Positions 44,001 to 64,000 of a stretch of DNA of 64,000 nt are shown here, piece after piece. Every line of letters begins with the position of its first letter. The stretch's first letter is position 1. The notes beneath the pieces were generated by a model. That model was given only the letters and a program-made list of their open reading frames with translations, was not told the origin of the DNA and ran no database searches. Made by a program: the position numbers and the translations under genes. The stretch lies in contig CM097885.1 of the NCBI GenBank assembly GCA_044892525.1, positions 34,164,001-34,228,000 of the forward strand, given 5' to 3'. The DNA is from Schmidtea polychroa. Its lineage: Eukaryota.

Positions 44001-47000
44001 ATAATGTAATTTCTGTTTCTTTATGACCAGCATTTACACTTTCGAAAAATTGTCATCAATAATTCGCATCCATTCATTGTATTTGCAAAATTACTATCTA
44101 ACCGTAATATTTCAACTTATTCTCTAGCCTGTTTTACTTTCTATAATTCTATCTAACTTCATTGCACCTTTACTTTGGTATTTAAAATGACATTTTTATA
44201 TTATTTTCTATTGGACAATTCTTTTTAGACGATTGTTTTCGATATACCGATTTTAAACTACAGTCCCGGAATGAAGAACCGATGATGTGGAGAAATCTTG
44301 TGGGCCTGTAGTCAGCTTGTAATAGTTTGTATGTATATAATTTCTTTTTGTGGCATTAATTTGTTTTTAAACTATATGGACATTTATTGCTATATAAAAT
44401 TTATGGTACGTAATTTAAATTTTCAAATATCCTTATTGTGCTTCTTTTAGTATTAATGAAAATGAGCACTAATAAAAATAAAATTATATTTAAATTGTTT
44501 AAGTTTATGAATAGATGAATAAAAAAAATCCTTGAAATGTATAAATCAATATTGTTTTTATTTTTTGTAAAAGTTTAATTTTATATCTGATGAATAAAAC
44601 AAAAGTTACCTTCTGACCCAAGTAGCAGATAATTTAAATTGGAAAATTTAAAAGTATGACTTGATAATTGATTGTGTATGTTACATTAGTCCATTAAAAA
44701 GACATTACGAAAAGCTAAAATTTTTAAATAGAAAAGAAATTTTCATGTCTCTGGCAATTAAAATTATAAATGTGTAATAAAATTTTTTGATTAGAATTTT
44801 TCAATTGTTGTTATTTTTGTTTAAACTGTTTAGTGAAAGGAAAGATATCTTAGAAAAGCATCATTAATAAAAGTATTAATGGTTTTTTGCGAGTTTAATA
44901 AATTGTATTTGATATTTTTTCGGAAATCAAATTAAAAAAATTAATCAATTTAACGTTGTTACTGGCAATGACAAAAATAGTAACTATATGCACTGTGAAT
45001 TTAAATTATATATAAAACGTATTAACTAAATTTTTACGAAATATATTAGGCATCTAGTGTTAGGTTTTCATTGTTTTATGGATCAAAAGATTCATCATTC
45101 AGAGAATGACGTTACTAAAATCACTAGATAACATATTGAAAATTGTAACAATAAAAAGTTAACTTCATCTATACACACTTTAAACAAACGAAAATTTCAG
45201 ACAATTTAGAACAATAAATTCAGTGTAAGATGGTTTATTCGGAAAGTGATATGTGTCACAGTATAGTTTAGGTGAAATTCCATTTTTTTTAATGAATATA
45301 TGGAGATTGTTTTAAAGAATAAGTTCTAGTTTAATGCAATAGGTCATCCTCGTGCAATGCTAATGTAACTATTTGTTAACCTCTTGTTTTCGAAAATTAA
45401 ATTAAAGCACTTGGTAAAATATGACAAAAATACTTGTTATTTTAAAGTATTTTAATGATCTATTAACATAAATAAAACTTCATTAGATTAGATCAAAGAA
45501 GTGGAATATTCTAAGGATGTTTTTCAATTTTTAGTTATGAAAATACATTTATGGTGGGGGATAATTTGTGTGGATCTAGATGAGAGAGGATCAAAAATTT
45601 TAGACCATGGATTAAGAAATGGTGTATGAGAATATTAAAGTATGTAGATTTTTTTATCCCATTGAGACTACCCATTTACAATTATAATCCAATTGAATCA
45701 GCTCTATTATAATACTGATCCCATTCACCGTGTTCTATTATAATATTGATCCCATTAACCTTTTCCAATTATAATACTGATCCCATTCAACCTGTCTCTT
45801 TATTATACTGATCTCATTCACCGTGTTCTATTATAATATTGATCCTATTCACCATGTCCCATTATAATACTGATCCCATTAACCTTTTCCAATTATAATA
45901 TTGATCCCATTCACCGTGTTCTATTATGATATTGATTCCATTAACCTTTTCCAATTATAATACTGATCCCATTCAACCTGTCTCTTTATTATACTGATCC
46001 CATTCAACCTGTCCAATTATAATACTGATCTCATTCACCGTGTTCTATTATAATATTGATCCTATTCACCATGTCCCATTATAATACTGATCCCATTAAC
46101 CTTTTCCAATTATAATATTGATCCCATTCACCGTGTTCTATTATAATATTGATCCTATTCACCATGTCCCATTATAATACTGATCCCATTAACCTTTTCC
46201 AATTATAATATTGATCCCATTAACCTTTTCCAATTATAATACTGATCCCATTCAACCTGTCTCTTTATTATACTGATCCCATTCAACCTGTCCAATTATA
46301 ATACTGATCTCATTCACCGTGTTCTATTATAATATTGATCCTATTCACCATGTCCCATTATAATACTGATCCCATTCACCCTGTCTCTTTATAATACTGA
46401 TCCCATTCAACCTGTCTCTTTATTATACTGATCCCATTCACCCTGTCCCATTATAATATTGATCCCATTAACCTTTTCCAATTATAATACCGATCCCATT
46501 CAACCTGTCTCTTTATTATACTGATCCCATTCACCGTGTTCTATTATAATATTGATTCCATTAACCTTTTCCAATTATAATACTGATCCCATTCAACCTG
46601 TCTCTTTATTATACTGATCCCATTCAACCTGTCTCTTTATTATACTGATCCCATTCAACCTGTCTCTTTATTATACTGATCCCATTCACCCTGTCCAATT
46701 ATAATACTGATCTCATTCACCCTGTCTCTTTATAATACTGATCCCATTCAACCTGTCCCATTATAATACTGATCCAATTCACCCTGTCTCTTTATAATAC
46801 TGATCCCATTCAACCTGTCCCATTATAATATTGATCCTATTCACCATGTCCCATTATAATACTGATCCCATTCAACCTGTCTCTTTATTATACTGATCCC
46901 ATTCAACCTGTCTCTTTATTATACTGATCCCATTCACCCTGTCCAATTATAATACTGATCTCATTCACCCTGTCTCTTTATAATACTGATCCCATTCAAC

Positions 47001-49367: not shown

Positions 49368-49982
49368 CGTGACTCAGATTTGATCACGCATTTGAAAACC
49401 TACACTGGGGATTACAAACTTATGTTGATCCAGAGGGCCATTAACTATTAAATTAATTAAGTAGTAATAATTAAAATAGGACTGTTGGAGCTAGCACAAC
49501 ACAACATCTATGGCAAAAGTTTATTTAAAATTATAAAAAGACACCAAATAAACAATAAATTTAACTTATTTTTGTAAATTAATTAAAATTATTTACGTTC
49601 TTTAATGCATTTAAAATTTTTTTAATTAGTTGAATTTATTTGCGAGATAGTCTGAGAATTTTAAATTCAGTAGCCAACTGGTTAATGGATGAACCTGCAG
49701 GAATGCATTGAGCAGTTCCTCGTTCGGTTCAGAAATTAGACGAGTAGGGTATGATTTCAGACACTTTGGTAGCCTGGCCTTAAGTAGGTCAGAATCGGCA
49801 AGTTTTTTCGTGTCAGATACGACTTTCTCAAGAATGTCATATGGATTCTGATCAGTCTCTTCACCAACAGGCACTCCAAGATACTGATAAAATTCATTAG
49901 GTTGTAATTTTTTGATTTTAATGCCGTCGATCGAAATTTCACTATCTATTTCAAGGTTTGGCAATTGAAGATATGCACACTT

Positions 49983-52900
49983 TTAAGGGCGATATTCAAA
50001 GCCGATTTCAGCTGCAGTTGCGACAGCTATATCAGTGATTTTCTGAAGTTCTTCAACAGATTTTGTAACTAAAGCTATGTCATCTGCATATGCAAGGATC
50101 TTAATTGGAGATTTCCCAATCCTGAAAGGTCTACAATCGGATCGCGATACAGCTTCAAGTACTGGATTAATGGCCAAAGCAAACAATATCATCGATATTG
50201 GACATCCTTGTTTGACACCTTGTTTAATAGGGATGTTTGGCGTCAGAATATTACCACAGCTGTGAAAGGTACTTGAGTTGGAATATAACATCTGGATGAT
50301 GGATGCAAATTCCTCGCTTACTCCAATGAATCGGAGTAAGGACCACATGTATTCATGAGGAACACTAACAAAGGCATCTTTTATATCAAGCCAAGCAATT
50401 GCAAGAGGCTTATTTATGCTGTATTTTGAGTGTTCTAGTGCAGCAGAAAGAATTGAATTATGCTCAACACATCCATCATGTTGTGAGCCACTTTTTTGAC
50501 CGATATGTAAAAGATCATTCGAGTTTATCCAACTTGTCAGACGACTAGCTAAACAAGATGCGAAAACCTTGTAAATGACAGAAAGCAATGCAATTGGACG
50601 CCAAGACGAGACGTCATCATATTTTCCATCTTTATCCGGCTTAGGAGTTAGGAGCGTTTTGAAAGTCTTCCAACTGTCTGGTATGGTCTTGTTTAAAATG
50701 ATTTTATTGTACAAGAAAGTTAGCAATTTACCCTCGGGATCAAGAGACAACAAGTCACGATATTGATTTCCATCAATACCAGGACATGTGTTCTCAGCTT
50801 TCTTTAGTTCGATAAGTACTTCATCACATGTGAGCAAAATTAAACGAAGTTTAATTTGGGAACGTTTAGAGAACTCAAATATTTTATCCCATGATTTTTC
50901 TAAAGGGGTTTTGTGCATGAAATTCATGACAATATTTTGAAATTTTGGCATCACTGTGATATTTGTATTGTTGAAGATTTTATTGACTGTTGATTTCATA
51001 TCAGTCATGAATTTTGCGATTAATTTACCCTTGTTGATTTTTGAAGGTAATTTCTTTTTATTTCCCAAGTATGGTTTATGAGTTGATTTTAATTTGTCAG
51101 GGAATTGCTCAATGATAACGTCAATGATTTCGTTTGCATTGAAATCTGTCACTCTCCTCAGTAGTTCTAATGCTTTGAGTTTACGCAATTCTAAATTTTC
51201 ATTCCCCTCTTTATTTTTGTTACTGTTTGTTGGTCTTACAGTCTTTTTCCTATTAAAATCTTTTACAGTTGGGATAAATGAGCTGACGACATTACCAATT
51301 TCGCGTAAGTTCAAATTTGTAAGAGGTAAGTCTTTAGCATAGTTTTGGATGAACGCGCATATCAGGATTTGACTAACTAGACCTGATCCTCGAGTGTCAT
51401 GAGGACAATTACCAGTATATAATACACGGCCAGGTGATTCTCTGATTTCATTAATTTTGTTCCTCAGAATTTTGCAGGTACGAAGATAATTTTCATTACC
51501 ACTCAGTGTTGTCGGATTTAGAAGATAGTGCTCATCAGTTTGGTAATCAATGATAAACAAGATTTTCCGTGATTTTTCTGGTGCTACGATAGTAAATATG
51601 ACTTGTGCCTTGATCAACGATTCACAATCTAAAAATTCATTTAAATATCCAGTGCAATCGTCAAGAATCGCAGTGCACATTGTAGCATTTATAAACATGA
51701 ACTTTGTGGGTAAGTTTAATTTATGAATGTATTTTGATGTGATTTCATCATTAATTTTACAGTTAATTAAGTTTAAATTCCTGGAGATCTCGTTTGTTTG
51801 TTGTATTTTATAAGATTTAAGGGAGTCACTGATACTTCTACGGCAAACCTGATTGTCAAAAAGTAATTTTTCGACCAATTCAATGACAGCAGAAGCAAAT
51901 ATATCTGGGTCAACAGATGTGATGGAAATGTGGTCGATGTTGTGGAGACTATTGAAGTTGATCTTCGTTTGAGAAAGGAAAAATTTATTCATATAGTCTG
52001 TCATGTTTTCTCCTATGCCGATTAGTCTCTCAGTTAGAATTCTGTTGTTAAAGTTGAAAATGTAACTGATTCCTAAAACGAAAGAGAAAAGATACAGACT
52101 CCAATTCGTGTCGTCTGGAATGACGCTGATAACATGTTCTATTCCAGCAAATTGTTTAAACGTGACATTTTCCCTGATGAATATATCGTTTTGTGCAATA
52201 ATATTCAATGTCAGTTCAGTAGAGAGAACAGTAATATTACTTCTATCTTTATACCATTCACTAATCAAGTATGTGACACATGAGTTCTGTTTTTGGAGAT
52301 ATATCAGGTTATCATTTCTCACCTTCTTAACTCCATTCCGTTTGATTGTCTCCATGAATTTTGGAAGGCCACCCCCCGAAGTTTTGGGATCTTTTTGTTG
52401 TTGAGTAAGTTTAAACTGGTGGACCTCTTTCCTGATAGTCTCGATGAAGCAGCCCGACAAGCTCTGCCATTCTCCACAAATCATCATGGCATATGCGCAG
52501 ATGTATGGCCCACAATCGTAGCTATTATTTTGATATAAAAGGTTATTATGAGGATGAAAAGTCATGGCTGCTTTAAGGTCAAACAATTCATTCAGAGCCA
52601 TTGTGATCTTAAGAGCAATTGTTTTATTCGTAAAACTATGCCGATTTAGAAGGATTGGATCAATGAAGTAAGAAATTAGAGAAGATTTACAATAAACGAA
52701 CAAGATCCAATGAGATTTGTCGATGTTAAGGGGGCATAATATTACTTGTGCTTTCAAGACTCTTTCCGGAATTGGGAAAGTGTCATTCTCGAGGTTAGAG
52801 CACAAAATCTCAACGATAAAACATTTGATAGACGCAAATTCTGGGTTGATGATCTGATTTTCGAGAAAATTATCAATATCATCATCAGTGAACCAGATCT

Positions 52901-53027
52901 TTGAGTCGCGTTTTACCATCAAATTTTTATTATTATTAATGATGTCGCGATGTTTATCAGTATTTTTTGTGCTGTCTGCATCAGTCTCCTTAGAGATTGG
53001 GGCAGATGTTGAGACTGATGCAGGCAC
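49983..53027 (-). CDS. Ulp1/C48 cysteine protease + reverse transcriptase
   Basis: WFTDDDID, SHWIL, FIDP, QNNSYDCG; RT motifs CPGIDG, WRPIAL, WLDIKDAF, GVKQGCPIS, YADD. Confidence 0.93.
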   Translation of the reverse strand: MPASVSTSAPISKETDADSTKNTDKHRDIINNNKNLMVKRDSKIWFTDDDIDNFLENQIINPEFASIKCFIVEILCSNLENDTFPIPERVLKAQVILCPLNIDKSHWILFVYCKSSLISYFIDPILLNRHSFTNKTIALKITMALNELFDLKAAMTFHPHNNLLYQNNSYDCGPYICAYAMMICGEWQSLSGCFIETIRKEVHQFKLTQQQKDPKTSGGGLPKFMETIKRNGVKKVRNDNLIYLQKQNSCVTYLISEWYKDRSNITVLSTELTLNIIAQNDIFIRENVTFKQFAGIEHVISVIPDDTNWSLYLFSFVLGISYIFNFNNRILTERLIGIGENMTDYMNKFFLSQTKINFNSLHNIDHISITSVDPDIFASAVIELVEKLLFDNQVCRRSISDSLKSYKIQQTNEISRNLNLINCKINDEITSKYIHKLNLPTKFMFINATMCTAILDDCTGYLNEFLDCESLIKAQVIFTIVAPEKSRKILFIIDYQTDEHYLLNPTTLSGNENYLRTCKILRNKINEIRESPGRVLYTGNCPHDTRGSGLVSQILICAFIQNYAKDLPLTNLNLREIGNVVSSFIPTVKDFNRKKTVRPTNSNKNKEGNENLELRKLKALELLRRVTDFNANEIIDVIIEQFPDKLKSTHKPYLGNKKKLPSKINKGKLIAKFMTDMKSTVNKIFNNTNITVMPKFQNIVMNFMHKTPLEKSWDKIFEFSKRSQIKLRLILLTCDEVLIELKKAENTCPGIDGNQYRDLLSLDPEGKLLTFLYNKIILNKTIPDSWKTFKTLLTPKPDKDGKYDDVSSWRPIALLSVIYKVFASCLASRLTSWINSNDLLHIGQKSGSQHDGCVEHNSILSAALEHSKYSINKPLAIAWLDIKDAFVSVPHEYMWSLLRFIGVSEEFASIIQMLYSNSSTFHSCGNILTPNIPIKQGVKQGCPISMILFALAINPVLEAVSRSDCRPFRIGKSPIKILAYADDIALVTKSVEELQKITDIAVATAAEIGFEYRP

Positions 53028-53033
53028 GCACCT

Positions 53034-54995
53034 TCATTTAATCTTGGAGACTACTTTCCTCGTTTTCCTACTTGGTCTTGTTAGTAGGTCCTCCTGTTGA
53101 TCACAACTGGAAATTGCGGGAGTAGATGGGATTATATCCAAATCAACAGGCAGCTGTCGTTTCAGAGTCGCATGTTCTTGTAGATCACCCTCCAGAATGT
53201 CGTTAATCTCTATGGATCGAGATGGCTCTTTCACAGCTGCTTCCACCGAGGTGTCTAATCCAGATGTGTTTCTCCTCTGCTCACCATTACTTTCAATCAC
53301 AGATGTCAAGAGGACATCAAGCATGTCTGTGATAATGCAAGTCATATTTGGTGTGCAAATTTTCCTACAATGCTTAGGTATACGGTAGGAGAATTTACTG
53401 TTAGATAAAAATTTCTTTTTGTTTCTAATGATAAAAAAGAGAAATCTTTTAGCTTTTATCATCTCTTCTTCGGATGTGCCTAATTCCATTTGATTAATGT
53501 TGCGGCCCAAATTCTCAAGAACCTTAAGTTGGGCAGCCTTTTGTGGACAGATTTCATCAATTTTGTCAAGAAAGGAATTGATTTTATAGATGGTTTCTGG
53601 AGAGATAATGTTGTGTATTCTATCGATCTCCTCTGACAGTTTCCACTGTCGAAGTTTTAGTAGTCTTTCCTGACAACTAGAAGAGTAGTATGAAAGACTG
53701 GGGATCATATTAATCATCTCCGGACCCCAATTTTCGATGTTGTCGCACCTTAATGTATTGCAATTTTCAATTTTAGTAATTGAGTGCATCAAAAAACAAT
53801 TACGTAAATAGTTTTTAACGTACTCATCAAATGTAGGATTTGAAATGTGTATTATGGTGCCTTTTAAATTTAAATAGTTGATATAATATATTATGTCAAC
53901 CAGTTTAGATGGGGAGTTTGGCTGAGTCAGAAGAGAGTTAAGTATGGGGTCATCTTCTGACATTTTAACAAAATTAATCAATCCCAGGTTGAACATTATA
54001 TCAGACGCATTTTCAGAATGCGGGACTTTAGGAATTTCAGTAATTTTATTAGTTTTAATAAATTTGCCCTTCACAAACGAGATCTCGTTAGGGAAATATT
54101 TTTCTAATTTTAAATCATTAATTAATTTAGTTAGTAAATCAGGATTCTTATTTATATTCTCAGAAAAATATAATTCCTGAATTTCAGGAAACGATTTATA
54201 TAACTCTTTCAACTGTGATCGCGAAAGTTCTAAGGTTTGAAGACTGGTGTTCTCATTACCAGAGTCACAGCTATTGAAAAGATCTAATAAGATAAAATCA
54301 CCTTCAGAAAATTTTATCTGTGATCTTATCAAGAAATCGGGAAGTTCACGTCGTTGTTTCATTCCATTCAAGATGTTATTTGTCTGTGCCGCTCTTTGAT
54401 TTATATTTTTGATGGTAGCCGTCTCTGCGAGCTTATGTGAGAGGGAATACAAAAATCTTTTAATTACAGAGGATGCAGGGATAAAACTATCAACATATTT
54501 GTTAGTTTTAACAATATTTGAATCTATTAGCGAAATTTTCAATGCACTAGAAGTCTTTATCTCGATCGGGGCTTTCGCTTTATAGTTCAATTTATGGGAA
54601 ACGCATATGTTGTGGTTTCTGTAAAAGAAATGTGAAAAATCCACGATCGACAAAGGATTATCATTTCCAGATATAGAAGCTAATTCTTTATTTATTGTTT
54701 GAAATTTATTCAGAGTTTCCCGAGACTTAATTAATTTACCTAATTTTGGAAAAAGTTTTATCAAATTTATTTTCTCCGTCCTTGAAAGAGTTCTTACATA
54801 AGATGGGAAAATTGAATTTGAGTATTTTTTGTTATTAATCAAATTTTTGCTTTTAAAATATTTTGTATTTTGATACATTTTATTTTTCAAAAGGCCTTTG
54901 TTTTCTTTAGCCAAAAAATTTGAATCGTTTTTTTCAACTTTAATTATATTTAATTTTGATTTGTTTAAGTTATTTAATTTAATATTAGATAACAT
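53034..54995 (-). CDS. Retrotransposon polyprotein N-terminal region, unknown function
   Basis: 653-aa ORF in frame with upstream ATG 55679 and the downstream protease/RT. Confidence 0.75.
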   Translation of the reverse strand: MLSNIKLNNLNKSKLNIIKVEKNDSNFLAKENKGLLKNKMYQNTKYFKSKNLINNKKYSNSIFPSYVRTLSRTEKINLIKLFPKLGKLIKSRETLNKFQTINKELASISGNDNPLSIVDFSHFFYRNHNICVSHKLNYKAKAPIEIKTSSALKISLIDSNIVKTNKYVDSFIPASSVIKRFLYSLSHKLAETATIKNINQRAAQTNNILNGMKQRRELPDFLIRSQIKFSEGDFILLDLFNSCDSGNENTSLQTLELSRSQLKELYKSFPEIQELYFSENINKNPDLLTKLINDLKLEKYFPNEISFVKGKFIKTNKITEIPKVPHSENASDIMFNLGLINFVKMSEDDPILNSLLTQPNSPSKLVDIIYYINYLNLKGTIIHISNPTFDEYVKNYLRNCFLMHSITKIENCNTLRCDNIENWGPEMINMIPSLSYYSSSCQERLLKLRQWKLSEEIDRIHNIISPETIYKINSFLDKIDEICPQKAAQLKVLENLGRNINQMELGTSEEEMIKAKRFLFFIIRNKKKFLSNSKFSYRIPKHCRKICTPNMTCIITDMLDVLLTSVIESNGEQRRNTSGLDTSVEAAVKEPSRSIEINDILEGDLQEHATLKRQLPVDLDIIPSTPAISSCDQQEDLLTRPSRKTRKVVSKIK

Positions 54996-55783
54996 TTGTT
55001 CTTCAAATTTAGGTAAATAAAATTCTACTTTTCGAATTTTATTATTAACAGTTATTTTTAATTCAGGTTCCAGATATCCACATGCCTGAGCCTGATCGTC
55101 AAGAGAAGGGCCACTCCGGATAACCGAATCGGAACTCGATATTTTTAAAAATAAATTTTTATTTAAATTTTTTACTTCATTTCTAGTTAAGTAATTAGTA
55201 TAATTAGGATCATTATTATCATTATATATATATGTTCTAGATCCAGCATTTAAGGGTTTATTTATAATTTTAGGTTTAATTATATTTAAAGACTTTGAAT
55301 TATTTCTTAATTTAGTAATATAAGAAATTTTTTTATTTAATTTATGTTTTTGATTTTGAAAATCATTTACTTTATTTTGATAAGAATTATATTTATCAGA
55401 ATGAAATCCATTACTAAAATTGTTTTTAAATTCATTATTTTTTACAAAATTATTTAAAAGAGAAGCATTGGCATTCTCAGGTTATAAACTGTAATCTAGA
55501 TTTATATAGTTCAAAAATAAATCAATCTTACGTTTAATTTCCAGAAATCCATCCTCAATCGAAAACATCCTACTTGACAAGTCCAAAAGGCCATCTTCCA
55601 TGGAAATCAGTCCAGAATCTAATCTAGGCATATTTTCATTTGAACGTTGTGCATATAAATAGTTTTTGTCGATATCCATTTGTTAAAATTAACAATCAAT
55701 TTGCTACTGATAGATTGAAAGTAGTTATAATAATTTCAAATTTTCGTCTGTCACAATTTTTTAGCTAAATCAATTAATTTAAT

Positions 55784-55856
55784 TGCCGCGAACCGGGATC
55801 GAACCAGTGACCTTTAGATCTTCAGTCTAACGCTCTCCCAACTGAGCTATCGCGGC
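55784..55856 (-). tRNA. tRNA-Phe (GAA), complete, T5 terminator replaced by retrotransposon 5' end
   Basis: GCCGCGATAGCTCAGTTGGGAGAGCGTTAGACTGAAGATCTAAAGGTCACTGGTTCGATCCCGGTTCGCGGCA; all stems pair. Confidence 0.97.
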
Positions 55857-56027
55857 TTATTTACAATAACAGACATCAGCTCATCACTGGTAAATTCCAC
55901 TAGAGCTTTATTTTCAAATTTTCATCAAACACCAATCTTATTTCCAACGTTCAAATTCATTATCATTTGAATTCAGATCAATATAATATTTCAATTTCAA
56001 TATTTGACAAGTGACATAAATTTTTTC

Positions 56028-56032
56028 AAAAA
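56028..56032 (-). terminator. Pol III T5 terminator
   Basis: TTTTT 6 nt after the tRNA 3' end. Confidence 0.7.
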
Positions 56033-56038
56033 TTTAAT

Positions 56039-56111
56039 TGCCGCGAACCGGGATCGAACCAGTGACCTTTAGATCTTCAGTCTAACGCTCTCCCAACTGA
56101 GCTATCGCGGC
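56039..56111 (-). tRNA. tRNA-Phe (GAA), complete
   Basis: Identical 73-nt cloverleaf followed by ATTAAATTTTT. Confidence 0.97.
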
Positions 56112-56203
56112 TTATTTACAATAACAGACATCAGCTCATCACTGGTAAATTCCACTAGAGCTTTATTTTGTTGGGCTAGAACTGATTTCTAGACCCAAAA
56201 TAC

Positions 56204-56855
56204 TAATTGTGACTGAAACGTGTAGGTACACAGCAAGTAAAAAGCACCAAGTATAGTTAAATATTAAAACCTACACCAAATAAACAATATTAACTAAAGG
56301 AGAAAGCAACAAAAACATAAACAAAGAAATTAAATAAAATTATACAAATGCAAGAAGTGATGCAAAAATCTAACTCAAAAATAACCAAATAAACATAACA
56401 TTACCAAAAGCAAACTCGAATAACTTAAAAGACGATAAAAACAGTAAAACATTCCAGAAAAACCCAGAACATTCTATAAAATGGCGATGACCATCACAAA
56501 AGTCATCTAGAACAACAAAAGTTAAGGAAAATAAATAAATTAGTATTAAAAAAAAAAAAAAATCTCAAAAAGAATTCATAAAAACATCAGTTAAAATAAA
56601 AATTAAATTAAAAGTAAAATAGAATGTTCTGGAACCGTTCCAAATCCATCATGGACGTAAAATTAATGAAAAATAATTAAAAAATAAAAATATAAAAATA
56701 AAAACAAAAATTATGGCACAAAAATTGCCATTAAAAATAGCAAAATCGTAAAATAGAAAATTCTGGAATAAAAAGAATTCGAGTTTGTTTTAATGCATCA
56801 ATACATACACGTGTACAAAATAGGTATATATACTGACACGTTTCAGTCAGAATTA
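56204..56855. repeat. Segment bounded by 20-bp inverted repeats (possible nested element)
   Basis: taattgtgactgaaacgtgt / acacgtttcagtcagaatta, 19/20 match. Confidence 0.7.
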
Positions 56856-58474
56856 ACCATTATTTTATGCCAAAATTTTTGTGTCAACAAAATATCAACA
56901 GTGAGTACGATTGATTCATTTTATCTATTATTATTTTATTTTATTATTATGTATTGTTGTCTCAACTATGTTAAGCTATTAAAATGTTTTATATTTTGAA
57001 TTTGTTTAATTAAAGTTTTTTTTTGATGTACGAATGTTCAACGGCGTACCGGTATTCCTGCGTCGTTGTTCAGTCCTGCATTTAATTTTTGAATTTGATT
57101 TCACATGCACACATACATTATTTATATTATACTAATCACTTATTACATGGCTCTTTTTGTGTTCGGGTCCTTCGGAGGTCGAACTACTTCATGGTCCTGC
57201 CATGGAGTTAGGTCGAGGAAAACCTCCGTCTGACTCTTTGTATTTATGTAAGGTCGACCGTAAATGGTTGACTCAACACATAACACTAAGGTTTGTGGAA
57301 GTGGTCACAGTGGGGCCATGGAAGCAATATTCTTCCCGACTCATTACGTAATATACAATTAAACTCAACACTTAAAATTCTGAACAAATAACTCCACACT
57401 AAGGTCCTAATCTGAGTAGAACTCATACTTAAATTGACACAATTATACAAATCACAGCAATGTAGATGGTTGATCAGTTATGCTTAGACATATGCCGAAT
57501 TGGGTTTTCGTAACAGTCGTTTATAGTAATCAGAGTAATGGAAAGGTTAAAGATATTCGGCATACGTGTAAGTATAACATAATCTAGTTAAGTCTTCGAA
57601 TCAATATAACTGTAAATATTCCGGACCCCAAAAATTAAGATGCGAAATCCCATCTTAACATACTTATAAGTACTCGGTTGTAATAATCTTTTATGTTGAT
57701 TATAAAACTACAGGTGATAAATGACTATGTCGTTGTAGGTACGAATTATAGCCAGAGAATATAAATTAGGAATTCAGAAATTGAGGTATAAATCGGGAAT
57801 GGTAATGACCAATCTCCTAATGTAAAAAGTCAATCAACTTGAAACTAGTTATACATAGATATACTGCAACTCTGAAGTGATAAAATGATACCCAGAAATC
57901 GGTAAGACAATGTTGATAATAGAAAGGGAAGTTAGAAAGAAGTATACCAAGCTGACCAAAAATTAGAACCCAAAAATATGAAATTATAAATTAGGAATAC
58001 CGAATTACAAATTGTAAATCATAAAACCTAAAATTTTAAATCAGAAAATATAAAATCATAAATGGTAGAATATCGGATTATAACTTATAAGATATAAAAT
58101 TATAATTTACGAAATATAAATGGATAAATTATAAAATATGAAATTTTTAATTGTAAACGATAAAATTATAAATTATAAAATATCAATTCCTAAATTACAA
58201 AATATAAAAATTATGAATTGCAAAATAAAAATTTATAAACTATAAAACTTAAATTTGCAAGTTATAAAATATAAAATTATAAATTATAATTACCTATAAA
58301 CTATAACCACCTATATATTACTTAACAAAATGGTATAAATATAGAGTATGAAAAAACTAGAATTAATACTTAACTTAGAAATTTCGAAATATATATAGTT
58401 ACAATAAGCTTGCCTCTAAGTACAAAAATCCCTTTAAGATTATAAAATAACTGTAAAATTTTTGTAATTCTTAA

Positions 58475-58970
58475 TATCATCACTAGGGTTTCTATTAATA
58501 TTACTAATATTATTAGTATTACCATTATCACTAGTATCATTATTATCCCTATTCGTATCATTATTATTACTATCATTATTATTAATATGATCACTATTAT
58601 TATTATTATTATTACTATTATTACTATTATTATTGTTATTATTGTTAATATTATCACTATTATTATTATCATGATAATCATTATTATTATCATTATTATT
58701 ATTATTATTTTCATTATTATTATTATTATTATTACTACTATCATTATTAATATTATCATTATGATTATTATTACTCTTATTATTATTATTATGATTGATA
58801 TTATTATTATTATTAATCTCGTTATCATTACTATCCTCATTACGACCATTATTATTATCATTATCCTTATTATTATTATCGTTACCATGGTTATTATTGT
58901 TATCCCGGTTGTTGCTATTAGTACTATTAGCGATAAGTTATATACGACTTGACTATTATTATTACTAATA
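58475..58970. repeat. Degenerate (ATT/ATC/ACT)n triplet repeat
   Basis: Direct reading. Confidence 0.9.
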
Positions 58971-59003
58971 CTGCCCTTAATATATATAATTTAATTGTAG
59001 ATA

Positions 59004-59006
<3 letters not shown>

Positions 59007-59069
<63 letters not shown>
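59007..59069. repeat. (TA)n microsatellite
   Basis: Direct reading. Confidence 0.95.
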
Positions 59070-59070
<1 letters not shown>

Positions 59071-59959
59071 TTAGTCATGGTGGAATATATTAGTAAATGC
59101 ATAAATATTATACTGATTATATGGTATCATTATTACTACTTATAAAAATCAATATCCCAATCTGATATTGATTTTAGGATTTCCCCAATAAATTAAATAT
59201 AGAAACAACCCTTTGAGCCAATCAGAGGGATCAGAATTCGGAAAAACTATTTTTAGCAACACCCCCCCCCCTCTGGGAGAATGTTACCATTATTCAAGCC
59301 ACCTAGGGATGTGAATAAGGGGGTAGGATCAGCTATGCAAGTTAACACTGAATATATAATCAAACTTAAGTTTTATCAAATCAACCTAAACGAGAAATTT
59401 TATTCATCAAATTGCCTTGAATAATAAAGTACTGTACACCCGGGTTATAGATGCCAAGCACCATGATTTTCACCTAAGAACGAGAAGCCGAACTCCAGGA
59501 GCTGAATCTCTAACTCTCCAGCTGAAAAACGATCGCCAAATTGTCCCTAAATTAAACACATACGATGAAAGAATAAATTACCCCAAATGCATAGACGATG
59601 ATTTTACCACTTATAACGAATACAACCAGGGGAAGAGTAAGTGGGCAAGAGACTGAGCTCGTCACTAGTACCCTTCGCCTGACGTAATCGCATTTAGTGG
59701 AAATATTCACATCTACAGAAAATTACCTAAAATTTTCCAAAATTTTAACTTATAAAATTCAAATTACCAACTAGTGGTAAATAAATGACGAATGATTAAA
59801 TTAATAATTTAAAACAAAACCATTTTTTTTTGAGATTTTCGGATCGGGTATGGATTTTCTGATGTTAACACTTAACTCTAATGAATTTTTATTTAATTAA
59901 AAAGTATATCAATAGATTAAATAAAATTTGGTCATGTGAGAAGGATTTATATTAATTAC

Positions 59960-60059
59960 AATAAATTTAGTAGTATAATAAATTTAGTAGTATAATAAAT
60001 TTAGTAGTATAATAAATTTAGTAGTATAATAAATTTAGTAGTATAATAAATTTAGTAGT
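59960..60059. repeat. 17-bp tandem repeat x~6
   Basis: aataaatttagtagtat. Confidence 0.93.
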
Positions 60060-60162
60060 TAAGTACTATTGATTTTGAACAAGAACTTTCTGTATGTTTG
60101 TTGTGACATCTATTTATAAGCCACGTTGGCTACGAGCGGGCCTTAATATTCATATTATAGAC

Positions 60163-60528
60163 ATGTCGCAATCGAGCTCTAGCAGTGACGAGGGTACTGA
60201 CCATCAGATGATCACCCGTCTCCGGACCCGGTACATCTGGCACCATATACATCGGTGGGGTCAGGGAAGGGACCTGGACTGCGCAGATAGAGTGATCCGG
60301 ACGGGCCCCGAAGTAGATGCCCCGGCATGGGTGAAGGTGGAGCCGGGGAATAACCGGTTACAGGAGGCCCGAGATCAAGCAGCCTGGGAGGTGGAAGCCG
60401 CTCAGATGCGACTCAAGAAGATCGAGATGCAAATCAAGGCAGAAAAGGAGGGAGTGCCTCTGGAAGAATTGGAAGAATTCGAGGCACCCATGAGAAAGAG
60501 GGGAAGGCCCCGCAAGCACCCCGCGTAA
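60163..60528 (+). CDS. Orphan 121-aa protein with short coiled coil and C-terminal AT-hook
   Basis: GC-rich island coinciding with the ORF from MSQSSSSSDEG; ends RKRGRPRKHPA. Confidence 0.6.
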   Translation: MSQSSSSSDEGTDHQMITRLRTRYIWHHIHRWGQGRDLDCADRVIRTGPEVDAPAWVKVEPGNNRLQEARDQAAWEVEAAQMRLKKIEMQIKAEKEGVPLEELEEFEAPMRKRGRPRKHPA

Positions 60529-60817
60529 TTGTGAGAGGACAATTCGCTCGACATTGACAATTTGTTTTATATGAACTAATTATTAGGAATCTGCTGTGTT
60601 TTATTTTATCTTTTAATTTTGTATTAATAGACGTCGGGTGTTTATTCTCGAATAAAGTATTCTTATGTGTTTTGTAAATCATTTGATAGATGGGGTGATA
60701 TAAGGATGCCCTAGTAGGAAATGTTAACATTAATTCATTGATTTTAATATTTATCGTTCTAACTTTATTGTTGGGTGTAATGGGAACTAATGAATTTCCT
60801 CTTTAGTGTACAAGCTA

Positions 60818-61276
60818 ATGGAAAATCTCCGGAAGGATCGGGAGCAGGCCCAGCACCAAGCCGACGAACTCCGGGTCCGGGTGGACAAGTTGAAGGGAAA
60901 ATGTCGAGAGTTCGAAGGGACCTGGTTTAGTCCCGAAGCAATGAAAAAGAAAACCGCCCAGATCCTCCAGCTGCAAACGCAGGCCGCCCAAGACCAAATA
61001 GAGATCCGCGCCCTGAAGCTACAGGTGCGGGTGCTCGAAACTGAGAAAAACGAGCAGTTGGTACAAGGGGCCATAGCCAGACAAATACGGCCACTGGCTG
61101 TGGACCTCGCAACTATATATCCCCCAGCCGCTGAAAATAAGCCCAAAAGGAAACGGCTTGGCCGAAATATTCGGGAGAAATTGAAGAAAGCTAGGCTGGC
61201 CGAATACGAGCGGCAAGCAAATTCGTCACCAGCAGCCACGACGAAATTGGCCAGTCCTACCAATAAGCCTGTTTGA
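60818..61276 (+). CDS. Orphan 152-aa coiled-coil protein with basic NLS-like tail
   Basis: GC-rich island coinciding with the ORF; heptad-like Q/E/L/K-rich N-terminal half; KPKRKRL. Confidence 0.6.
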   Translation: MENLRKDREQAQHQADELRVRVDKLKGKCREFEGTWFSPEAMKKKTAQILQLQTQAAQDQIEIRALKLQVRVLETEKNEQLVQGAIARQIRPLAVDLATIYPPAAENKPKRKRLGRNIREKLKKARLAEYERQANSSPAATTKLASPTNKPV

Positions 61277-61802
61277 ACTTATATTCGGTTTAAGGTGTTT
61301 TGTAGTATATTTGTGTATTGTTGTAGTCTTCAAATAATATGTTCCTTATTAAAATAATGCACATTTTGCAGTGATAAAATAATGACTAGTATAGTTTATG
61401 ATTGCCTGGAAAATGAGAGTTTGTGCATAAGGTTGGGAAAACAATTTTGATAAAGGGACCTGAGGAATCGGACACACACCTTCTATCGGTAGTCCGTGAA
61501 CCCATGGAGTGCTCGACAATTATAGTGCTTTGATGCGCTCACTTTTTGCGAGTACTAAACCCTTGGTACAGTACCAACGTTGATTGCTCAACGGGTACCA
61601 AGAGGAAAACAACGTTGTATTCTGCGTTACGCTGGTAACAGCACTCAAACATTCAACCACCGGTAACCCACCAATTTTCAAATTTTCATCAAACACCAAT
61701 CTTATTTCCAACGTTCAAATTCATTATCATTTGAATTCAGATCAATATAATATTTCAATTTCAATATTTGACAAGTGACATAAATTTTTTCAAAAATTTA
61801 AT

Positions 61803-61869
61803 TGCCGCGAACCGGGATCGAACCAGTGACCTTTAGATCTTCAGTCTAACGCTCTCCCAACTGAGCTAT
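61803..61869 (-). pseudogene. tRNA-Phe lacking nucleotides 1-6 (retrotransposon insertion site)
   Basis: Identical to positions 7-73 of the intact copies; GCCGCG replaced by the element 3' UTR. Confidence 0.93.
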
Positions 61870-64000
61870 AGTTAAAACATTTATTAATTATAATAAATTT
61901 GATATTTGTATTTACAATAGGACAGTGTTCAGCATGGAACACGCCTTTCGAGAAAATAACAAGAACAAAAGAGTCAGAAAGAAATCGATCATATTCAATG
62001 TATTTTTCGGGATTATTTCGACTCAGATGTTAATGTCAATTTTCTGATTAGTCCCTGGCTCTGATGATATCGCAGTCATCGGATGTTTTATCCGGCTTTG
62101 AATATTGGAGTGTTCAATTACATCAGTTTTCACCAGTCATTCAACCTGCAATCTGTTTCCTGGGCTGATGTTGAGAATCTGAACCTTCAATACGCAGCAT
62201 CGAAACAATATCCCTGCAATAGACAAAAAAAGCATATTTACATGTTTATAAATATATACAACTGCCTTTCTTTTGGAGGGTTCATCTAAAATTCTAAATA
62301 TATACAAAGATATTTATACATATACATTGATATTTAAAAACCCGAGAATGACAATGCTTCTGAGATCTTAGAGCAATTTGTTATGGAGATTTTTCTAATT
62401 AAGGTCTGCTAAAGTGCCAGTTTTGTGGTAGTACCACCGTCTGGCAGAATGTGTGATGTTACTTATCGTACATTCCTTCAGTAGACTGTTTATTTCTGTG
62501 CGTTTAACTCCAATTTTTAAAAGGATTTCAGGAGTTGATGACGGAAAAGAACCCAAAGCTCCGATAATACAAGTGTCAAGTTCGACTTTGAAATCAGGTT
62601 TGACAGCTTGTATTTCATTCTTAAGCGATTCGTATTTAATTAAATTTGAAGAGTCAACTAGTTGAAAGTTCTTGACAGAGTCGATAGGACATTTCATGTC
62701 AACTAGAAAGATCTTCCTTTTCAACAAATCAGTGATCATTAAATCCACTCGTTCTTTGGAATTCGGAACAAGTGAACAGATATGATCTACTACAACAATC
62801 AAGTTGGGATTTTTCATTAATCGATTAGTGATTAATTTCAGACAGTCATCATGTCGCTCTGAGGCAAGGGTCAGATGGACTTTACAAGATTGAATGACAT
62901 GTGACATTGTCTCTTCCTCAGTTTGACAACGACGACAAAGTCTTTTACCACCTTTATTGTAAGGCTTCGCATTGACTGAGAGGGAGTTTGTGCGAGCTCT
63001 GTGTATGAAGTTCCAAGCAAATTCAGAGAGAGCACCACGAAAAATTGCGATGTTTATTTTAGGCGAAAGTCTGATTGCTGCAGCTATAATGTTGGAGTTA
63101 TGACTGTTCTCTCCTTTCAAAAGATAGGCATCGCAGAGTGCCATGTGCAAAACCTTAGACGTGGTTTGGCGTAAGTCAGAAGTGAGAATACACGTGCCAC
63201 GCATTGCTGTTGTAATATAAAGCGATGTTTCTTGCTTTGTTACAATAAATGCTATTGAGATTTTGTGATATTTTTCAAAAAATGCAATAGCAGTTCTGAC
63301 TCGCTGGAATCGAGTTTTCTTTCCAGAATGGCAAAGTTTGGATTGCTTACCATTGAGCCAGTCAAGACTCTCCTGTAGTGTAGGGTCTTTTATTCCGAGT
63401 CGAGGTCCAGTGACAAAGCTCAGAGAATCAGTGTTGATCTTTTTCGCAAAGTCACACTTCGATGTTAAGAGTCGAAAGAAATGTGTTATTGTCTGTGTGT
63501 GATATTCGTCAAGAAGGTCTACACAGTTTGCTCCTCCGTTTTCAGTTGAGTTGTAGAAATAACTTACTTCAGAGTGATTTGGCAAAAGTAACATTTTTCT
63601 GAGACAACTCCTCACTTGACTGGTGATGTTGACAGAACGATTACTATTGGCGCTTGGTTTTGAAAGAGCGCTAGTTTTAATTTCGCGAGTTCTAAAGGGA
63701 AAAATCAAACGTGAATGGACAAAGATCTTATAAGCTTTAAGTTTTTGCCATCCAAGTAGGTCAGAGTCGGCAAGTTTTTTCGTGTCAGATACGACCTTCT
63801 CAAGAATGTCATATGGATTCTGATCAGTCTCTTCACCAACAAGCACTCCAAGATACTGATAAAATTCATTAGGTTGTAATTTTTTGATTTTAATGCTGTC
63901 AATCGAAATTTCACTATCTATTTCAAGGTTTGGCAATTGAAGATATGCACACTTTTCAGGGCGATATTCAAAGCCAATTTCAGCTGCAGTTGCTACAGCT
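61870..64000 (-). mobile_element. NeSL-like non-LTR retrotransposon, copy 2 (3' portion; continues beyond right edge)
   Basis: RT thumb, CCHC knuckle, RLE and 525-nt 3' UTR joined to tRNA-Phe nucleotide 7. Confidence 0.93.
62395..63999 (-). CDS. Retrotransposon polyprotein C-terminus: RT thumb, CCHC zinc knuckle, restriction-like endonuclease (partial)
   Basis: KC...YQYLG; GGAN; CRRC...ETMSHVIQSC; RHDD; RVDLM...VDMKCP...KY; IIGALG; frame open to window edge. Confidence 0.92.
   Translation of the reverse strand, partial: AVATAAEIGFEYRPEKCAYLQLPNLEIDSEISIDSIKIKKLQPNEFYQYLGVLVGEETDQNPYDILEKVVSDTKKLADSDLLGWQKLKAYKIFVHSRLIFPFRTREIKTSALSKPSANSNRSVNITSQVRSCLRKMLLLPNHSEVSYFYNSTENGGANCVDLLDEYHTQTITHFFRLLTSKCDFAKKINTDSLSFVTGPRLGIKDPTLQESLDWLNGKQSKLCHSGKKTRFQRVRTAIAFFEKYHKISIAFIVTKQETSLYITTAMRGTCILTSDLRQTTSKVLHMALCDAYLLKGENSHNSNIIAAAIRLSPKINIAIFRGALSEFAWNFIHRARTNSLSVNAKPYNKGGKRLCRRCQTEEETMSHVIQSCKVHLTLASERHDDCLKLITNRLMKNPNLIVVVDHICSLVPNSKERVDLMITDLLKRKIFLVDMKCPIDSVKNFQLVDSSNLIKYESLKNEIQAVKPDFKVELDTCIIGALGSFPSSTPEILLKIGVKRTEINSLLKECTISNITHSARRWYYHKTGTLADLN

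Follow-up and report, generated by a model that had tools for sequence, protein, structure and literature searches.

The retrotransposon R5 of the planarian Girardia tigrina reportedly contains two open reading frames (ORFs), encodes a reverse transcriptase (RT) together with a restriction-like endonuclease (RLE) and targets 28S ribosomal DNA (rDNA). The planarian LIN families, which among the literature matches listed are named only in PMC4640811 and PMC5035012, target 28S rDNA, tRNA-Arg (LIN15_SM) or tRNA-Glu (LIN25_SM) (PMC4640811). S6 Fig of that paper places one LIN25_SM copy in a sequence matching the intron-bearing tRNA-Tyr of the genome studied here, some copies in tRNA-like repeats and others at TGAT-like sites. 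Here we analyze a 64,000-nucleotide (nt) stretch of Schmidtea polychroa DNA (assembly GCA_044892525.1, 781 Mb; contig CM097885.1, positions 34,164,001 to 34,228,000), referred to as a whole as the window, which carries parts of two copies of a retrotransposon of this kind next to tRNA-Phe(GAA) genes. An earlier reading of the window (the original prediction) took the element to be specific for tRNA-Phe(GAA) and mentioned reports of tRNA-specific planarian relatives. Such relatives are indeed on record as LIN15_SM and LIN25_SM (PMC4640811), but the element is not Phe-specific: it occupies the same spot in at least eight kinds of tRNA gene. With a probability of roughly 0.8 we regard it as an active LIN25-type member of the flatworm R5/LIN lineage. 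Its insertions lie in sense orientation between tRNA nt 4 and 5, in the arrays of at least eight isoacceptors, and presumably arise by target-primed reverse transcription; expression of its enzymes by stop-codon readthrough is moderately probable. The features that raise it above the ordinary are wide targeting in a fixed register, a transduced tRNA-Val leader, a conserved UGA with a hairpin, and a sister family on 5S rRNA genes.

One Register in Many tRNA Genes

A search of the genome with a 29-base pattern of the element's 3' end gave 122 matches, and the reversed control gave none, so the association with tRNA genes goes far beyond chance. Targets were assigned by the printed downstream bases for 100 listed of the 122 3' ends, and the counts are tRNA-Tyr 43, His 23, Ser-TGA 11, Ser-GCT 10, Glu 4, Phe 3, Val 3 and Met 1; of the remaining two, one is a tRNA-like site and the other is a sister-family copy at another site, in tRNA-Arg. 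At all 98 tRNA junctions listed the element ends with ...TTTTAA and is followed by nt 5 of the tRNA, as expected from the fixed insertion position that had been proposed. The tabulated flanks of the genomic 3' ends thus bear out the association with tRNA genes (98 of 100 listed) and not the Phe target, which on the four large contigs takes 2 of 45 listed junctions. A second search (30 rows) added sites in Ser-GCT (11), Val (1) and tRNA-like sequences (2), along with 6 AT-rich non-tRNA rows, approximately the control level of 5; further pattern searches, in which the GRT motif was required, returned no additional tRNA types in 134 listed of 140 rows.

In 69 of 71 fetched loci, which cover eight tRNA arrays, the six bases after the element are the native nt 5-10 of that array, and the first of these bases, be it C, T or A, is that of the target. 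One of the two loci that deviate is the window copy, with CT for CG after the element. Because it has T for G at nt 6, its junction was originally placed at nt 7 of the tRNA (61870/61869), whereas the true junction is 61872/61871, between nt 4 and 5. Common to the targets is N-G-R-T-V-G with the A box behind it; neither nt 1-4 nor the flanks upstream are related from array to array. At the single tRNA-Ala copy the junction lies about 2 bases further upstream, on the GAT motif of that gene, and tRNA-Arg(ACG) and tRNA-Lys(CTT), both without G6-R7, are absent from the 98 listed junctions. Three copies (L019, L095 and L096) are joined to tRNA-like sequences outside arrays. The tRNA-Tyr(GTA) genes (L071-L082, L102-L104) have an intron of 11 nt, and ARAGORN takes most of them for Asn genes.

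The element fits the pattern of the R2-group RLE elements: its 3' junction is fixed, its 5' ends vary or are truncated, and terminal repeats are absent. By analogy with the R2 paradigm, its endonuclease would nick the bottom strand between nt 4 and 5, and the 3'-OH at the nick would prime reverse transcription on the UUUUAA end of the RNA. The 5' end of the cDNA may then be joined to upstream array DNA by microhomology, probably with the loss of part of the repeat unit. The protein would recognize the downstream G6-R7-T8/A-box DNA and not the isotype. Several points weigh against this account and against the counts behind it. Of the 122 3' ends, 22 lie outside the 100 listed, and 55 of the 100 listed rows are on small contigs that may repeat the same arrays. 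The copies in the His, Tyr and Ser-GCT arrays each cluster in a clade resident in that array, where a single 5' junction often recurs. Many copies may thus be array duplications, and the counts overstate independent events. As far as the compared junctions indicate, G6-R7-T8 appears to be a trait of the used targets, which does not imply its sufficiency.

The Ty3 and Dictyostelium TRE elements are tethered to the RNA polymerase III (Pol III) machinery, and TFIIIC bound to the A and B boxes could in the same way deliver the element, whose endonuclease would then pick a nearby short GAT-like site. Tethering would suit the observations that every site mapped for the family is in a tRNA or tRNA-like sequence and that sister families use other Pol III genes (tRNA D-loops, 5S rRNA), and it would supply the specificity for which a six-base motif alone is too short in 781 Mb. 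We nevertheless find it doubtful, since the Ala copy tracks the sequence motif and not the position, the off-target sites of LIN25_SM start with TGAT-like bases in non-tRNA DNA (S6 Fig of PMC4640811), and in the 100 listed rows none of the nt 4/5 junctions falls in the Arg, Ile, Asn or initiator Met arrays, which the LIN15-like sister family uses.

Insertion at nt 4/5 has a close precedent. LIN25_SM of Schmidtea mediterranea shares with our element the 3' end (27 of 30 columns by eye, without poly(A)) and sense insertion at tRNA nt 4/5, before TGAT (PMC4640811, S6 Fig), and the assembly studied here has genes for tRNA-Glu and tRNA-Tyr, and a Glu spacer, that match the S. mediterranea ones in the same figure almost exactly. 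Targeting of tRNA at nt 4/5 is therefore already published, and for this family a catalogued relative exists. The original prediction rightly asked for a comparison with planarian LIN families and for a check of novelty. Novelty is largely removed by LIN25_SM, which has nearly the same 3' end and the same site; the breadth of targets is not stated in the accessible part of PMC4640811. Unlike LIN25_SM, which is described there as tRNA-Glu-specific, our element uses eight arrays, and because Glu accounts for 4 of the 100 listed junctions we consider it a LIN25-type relative with wider target use and not LIN25_SM as described. The accessible account of LIN25_SM states no 5' boundaries, ORF layout or recoding. 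The link to LIN25 rests on the 3' end and the site; the RT tree contains unnamed homologues only. The target breadth was not found described in the literature searched, although Fell et al. 2025, the R5 paper and Repbase Reports may cover targets. Insertion in several tRNA types is also known for the Dada DNA transposons, which recognize the primary sequence of the A box (nt 8-13) (PMC8869645), but these are DDE transposons that create target duplications and move by an unrelated mechanism.

Expression of the Second ORF

In full-length copies ORF1 (about 840-880 amino acids, aa) and ORF2 (about 1,530 aa) are in one frame with one codon between them. The interruption is not decay but a conserved in-frame TGA, found in 57 of 57 junction-bearing copies, including one LIN15-like element, and in 5 of 6 sister-family loci. 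A 19-pair hairpin begins a few bases 3' of the TGA, with a z score of -5.1 in the window and of -2.7 to -4.5 in four relatives; in each of the five sequences, none of 200 shuffles was as stable. In a comparison with the 54%-identical family, 9 of 10 hairpin-arm codons are identical vs 44% elsewhere (P 0.004); in a comparison with the 5S family the figures are 14 of 14 vs 21 of 38, and synonymous-site conservation in the arms is above that of the rest of ORF2. The first in-frame AUG of ORF2 is codon 39, and in many otherwise intact Tyr and Ser-GCT copies it is codon 139-145, past the catalytic His of the protease. In 7 of 11 remote homologues the gene call begins at the same VPA/VPV start. Two stem codons that pair with each other encode Ser...Asp in some homologues and Pro...Gly in others, which fits one paired change.

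These observations suggest that ORF2 is made by occasional hairpin-stimulated readthrough of UGA, a proposal that we consider moderately probable. The arrangement of UGA and a 3' stem-loop is like that of the murine leukemia virus (MuLV) gag-pol and alphavirus signals, where an in-frame stop, a short spacer and a stem of about 12 bp are accompanied by raised synonymous-site conservation (PMC3159437); unlike these, which are viral and have a UGA-C or UAG-G context, the candidate signal described here is UGA-A. Readthrough would yield an ORF1-protease-RT-endonuclease polyprotein of about 2,400 aa, possibly cut at a Gly-Gly by its own protease. A number of findings speak against readthrough. The covariation at the protein level amounts to one event, the Pro/Gly rows forming one clade (protein records only), and no two-sided compensatory DNA change was found in the hairpin, where all 500 shuffles reach the observed scores. 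Of the 19 pairs, 11 are invariant, 2 vary one-sidedly and 6 are broken in some rows. The base after the UGA is A and not the usual leaky C, and in one sister family (L117) the TGA is placed differently, behind the protease. In six loci Rfam returned tRNA and 5S matches only, with no ribozyme or selenocysteine insertion sequence (SECIS) family at gathering score. Readthrough in non-LTR (long terminal repeat) elements was not found in the literature searched; the R5, NeSL-1 and SART1 papers, Repbase Reports and bioRxiv supplements may describe ORF layout.

ORF2 might instead be translated by termination-reinitiation or from a non-AUG start (GUG, codon 3), the hairpin aiding initiation. In SART1 a structure beyond the stop-start site is required, and LINE-1 ORF2 reinitiates unusually (PMC5972666); in our element GTG, coding for Val, is unchanged in every aligned locus, and an out-of-frame AUG overlaps or closely follows the stop. 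This AUG, however, opens a short frame other than ORF2, the GUG is itself inside the predicted stem, and reinitiation needs neither the shared frame of the ORFs nor an invariable TGA stop, which makes it an unlikely route to ORF2.

Probable Movement Between Arrays

The window subfamily is present in Phe, Val, Ser-TGA, Met and Glu arrays. Copies in different arrays differ by as little as 0.0-0.1%, as is the case for those in the Met, Ser-TGA, Glu and Phe arrays, which points to recent movement between arrays. Both ORFs are open in 32 of 75 loci examined, none of these 32 being a Phe copy, and the ratio of non-synonymous to synonymous polymorphism (pN/pS) of 0.25-0.42 for ORF1 and 0.17-0.24 for ORF2 points to purifying selection on both.

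Within the array unit, the 5' ends lie at distances of 22 to about 410 nt, in most cases at a short microhomology. Copy 1, said in the original prediction to begin directly behind a tRNA-Phe gene, is separated from it by 8 nt of Phe flank and 47 nt of tRNA-Val spacer (55775-55729), and the element starts at 55728. Where a unit is empty, a 28-mer of this spacer leads into the next tRNA-Val gene, whereas at four Val and two Phe loci it leads into the element; counted from the end of the short tRNA-Val spacer, the leader is 47 nt long in copy 1 and 28 nt long in copy 2 and in L016. Because the Val spacer sits on Phe-array copies, templates would appear able to carry a flank of the donor array, and on the simplest reading the Phe-array copies with a Val leader would derive from a donor in a Val array, transcribed from a start within the spacer. 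Copy 2 and L016 (contig C103), whose bodies differ by 0.5%, also have an inverted duplicate of element bases ~93-409 before the 28-nt Val leader, which looks like the outcome of a fold-back template switch.

In a uniform tandem array, a long target-site duplication and an upstream deletion look alike. The Val joint has 9 bp missing, and at 46 loci the segments on the two sides of the element, upstream and downstream, show about as many differences from each other as two adjacent units do (6.0 vs 5.9 per kb for His, 4.7 vs 4.1 for Tyr and 3.5 vs 4.7 for Ser-TGA, the Ser-GCT value being distorted by one broken locus). We lean towards a deletion, and not a duplication, of upstream DNA at insertion; R9 is said to produce a long target-site duplication.

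Mosaic copies, whose 5' parts and bodies group apart, exist, and within arrays 5' junctions are common to several copies, as they would be if the spread over isotypes was mostly recombination, a few insertions having been copied by unequal crossover and gene conversion. We hold this to be improbable: the array spacers are unrelated, yet every junction is in the same tRNA register with target-specific first bases, and the His copies have at least eight different 5' joints, several copies being 5'-truncated. Recombination accounts for copy numbers but not for entry into each array. Specificity for tRNA-Phe(GAA), suggested by both visible window junctions lying beside tRNA-Phe and matched by two more Phe junctions elsewhere, can be dismissed almost entirely, as Phe represents 3 of 100 listed 3' junctions, the Phe copies form no clade of their own and have Val or Ser-TGA copies as nearest relatives, and two 9.9-kb Phe-array samples with 38 tRNA genes each are free of the element.

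Encoded Proteins

The assignment of the element to site-specific non-LTR retrotransposons that encode an RLE and an Ulp1-type protease was correct: copy 2 contains CCHC, RHD and D..DxK motifs, and PF02902 (E 2e-5) precedes PF00078 (E 3e-23). The RT is of the non-LTR type, and its closest solved relatives are R2 proteins (E 1.7e-49). The C-terminal CRRC...H...C, RHD, VDLMI, DMKCP and KYESL motifs are kept in homologues and correspond to the PD-(D/E)xK type at motif level, while zf-RVT is below the Pfam cut-off.

Ulp1-type proteases cut after Gly-Gly-type sites. The Ulp1-like domain matches PF02902 above the cut-off, its model matches SENP/Ulp1 structures, and its His, Asp, Gln and Cys are invariant in 10 sequences, in which the Gly-Gly after the protease is nearly invariant. 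From this conservation, the protease may cut the polyprotein at the Gly-Gly. Behind the Gly-Gly, copy 1 ORF2 has two protease-like repeats of similar predicted fold; these repeats 2 and 3 are without catalytic residues and are recognized from predicted secondary structure and one weak pairwise match (E 5e-4). An N-terminal Ulp1-like protease is also present in NeSL-1 and Utopia-1_TSP (PMC4640811), but the target of NeSL-1 is SL1 exons.

ORF1 has 14 unnamed homologues, no Pfam match and no Atlas hit. It was modelled as a whole, and its model, with a predicted local distance difference test (pLDDT) value of 64, has no Foldseek match at E 0.001 and a best VIA Z of 7.8, on low-confidence N-terminal helices; we make no claim of a new fold. 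Its position and basic tail prompt the guess that it binds RNA in a Gag-like role. Subfamilies (L072, L077, L089, L027) have exchanged the N-terminal part of ORF1 or diverged strongly there, with 28-37% identity between the Tyr/Ser-GCT and window types, and in ORF2 of those subfamilies only about 1.4-2.3% of non-synonymous sites differ.

Sister Families on Pol III Genes

The element shares a lineage with LIN15_SM, which enters four tRNA-Arg isoacceptors at one D-loop site (PMC4640811), but its own site is different and ORF2 identity, estimated via the LIN15-like relative L097, is 54% at the amino-acid level. L097 has the same TGA and hairpin as the window element. The LIN15-like family of S. 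polychroa (L097, L024) inserts in the D-loop of many tRNA types: with isotypes read by eye in 100 listed of 195 rows, 93 exact rows comprise Met 40, Asn 35, Arg-TCT 4, Ile 3 and tRNA-like or other 11, and the family is also present in initiator Met, Arg-ACG and His genes.

Another sister family (L112, L116), again with the same TGA and hairpin, inserts at about nt 21/22 of 5S rRNA; of its 163 3' ends, 100 were listed, and these fall in 5S genes (86) or at a TAG-repeat element (14). No 5S-specific NeSL-type family was found in the literature searched. A close relative in tRNA-Leu(TAA) (L113, L114, L121, L122) uses the same register as the window element in 26 of 26 rows and has a different C-terminus and 3' untranslated region (UTR). 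In a distant family (L117, L118; C2:142.97 M) the in-frame TGA comes after the protease, a 1299-aa frame is present in 7 of 8 rows, and one copy lies in antisense orientation to a tRNA-Lys(CTT) gene, about 170 nt downstream. Neither the Val-spacer leader nor the D-loop, tRNA-Leu and 5S sister families were found described in the literature searched, although Repbase Reports may cover their targets.

A broader view can be put forward tentatively, and we consider it possible but somewhat short of probable: the lineage would express its enzymes in gammaretrovirus style, by UGA readthrough and self-cleavage by a SUMO-protease-like domain, and would have radiated over Pol III genes (acceptor stem/A box, D-loop, 5S), one family approaching a pan-tRNA integrase.

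Features of the Window

Read along the minus strand, the region opens with the 3' part of copy 2 (2.1 kb), continues with a tRNA-Phe gene without its first bases, an interrupted spacer and a pair of intact tRNA-Phe(GAA) genes, and closes with the 5' part of copy 1 (5.9 kb) (Table 1). The 3' UTR of copy 2 enters tRNA-Phe in sense orientation without poly(A), and copies 1 and 2 differ at 8 of 247 overlapping bases, both as originally reported. ORF2 of copy 2 is open and ORF1 is frameshifted; nt 7 to 73 of the target gene (61803-61869) are identical to the intact Phe genes. No long ORF was found in the unrelated 5.5-kb insertion, which is possibly a solo LTR of a giant gypsy element, a reading based on the LTR size of Burro. 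A 31-bp satellite at 45653-47494 of the window consists of about 55 copies with a 124-bp higher-order period.

Table 1. Coordinates of the element copies, their surroundings in the window and loci of sister families
Feature	Position	Strand	Remarks
Copy 2, 3' part	61872..64000	-	runs past window edge; full length there (locus L001)
Copy 2 ORF2, C-terminal 534 aa	62395..63999	-	RT end, CCHC, RHD and restriction-like endonuclease motifs
Copy 2 ORF2 motif starts	CCHC knuckle 62937; RHD 62856; VDLMI 62748; DMKCP 62700	-	
Copy 2 3' UTR	61872..62394	-	523 nt; TTTTAA terminus; without poly(A)
Target tRNA-Phe(GAA), nt 5-73	61803..61871	-	element in place of nt 1-4; nt 6 unlike native G
Unrelated 5.5-kb insertion in Phe array spacer	56169..61673	.	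TG...CA ends; 4-bp target duplication (ATTT)
Intact tRNA-Phe(GAA)	56039..56111	-	255-bp array unit
Intact tRNA-Phe(GAA), upstream of copy 1	55784..55856	-	T-run terminator shortened to two T
47-nt leader before copy 1	55729..55775	-	identical to end of short tRNA-Val array spacer; joins Phe flank at TAAAT microhomology
Copy 1	49782..55728	-	5' end present; final 1.9 kb gone; ~2% diverged from nearest copies; 2 nonsense codons
Copy 1 ORF1, 881 codons + TGA	53034..55679	-	nonsense at codon 66 (55484); basic C-terminal tail; no Pfam match
In-frame TGA between ORF1 and ORF2, copy 1	53034..53036	-	conserved
Stem-loop 3' of TGA, candidate readthrough stimulator	52969..53031	-	19 pairs; 22-nt loop; -29.6 kcal/mol
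Copy 1 ORF2 to nonsense codon (49985)	49983..53033	-	Ulp1-like protease, Gly-Gly, two more repeats, RT
Copy 1 ORF2 sites	protease His 52712; QNNSYDC from 52532; SGGG 52379; YADD of RT 50090	-	
5S sister family loci	C1:86.5-86.7 M; C1:136.7 M; C1:192.8-193.0 M; C3:114.5-114.75 M		
LIN15-like family loci	C2:87.8-88.2 M; C3:22.9-23.1 M; C1:13.6 M; C1:79.3 M		
tRNA-Leu(TAA) relative	C2:162.1-162.5 M		

Conclusions

Site-specific RLE retrotransposons are being developed as gene-insertion tools, and almost all of this work has dealt with R2 and 28S rDNA. The presence in one genome of close relatives with many intact copies and different targets (tRNA nt 4/5, the D-loop and 5S) provides a system in which changes of target choice can be mapped. 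The entry of one protein into many tRNA types at one register means that, for this LIN25-type family, the label of tRNA-Glu specificity has to be revised. If UGA readthrough is true, it would add a recoding strategy to those of non-LTR elements, where none was found described in the literature searched, and it would suggest what the Ulp1-like protease of the NeSL clade, so far unexplained, may do.

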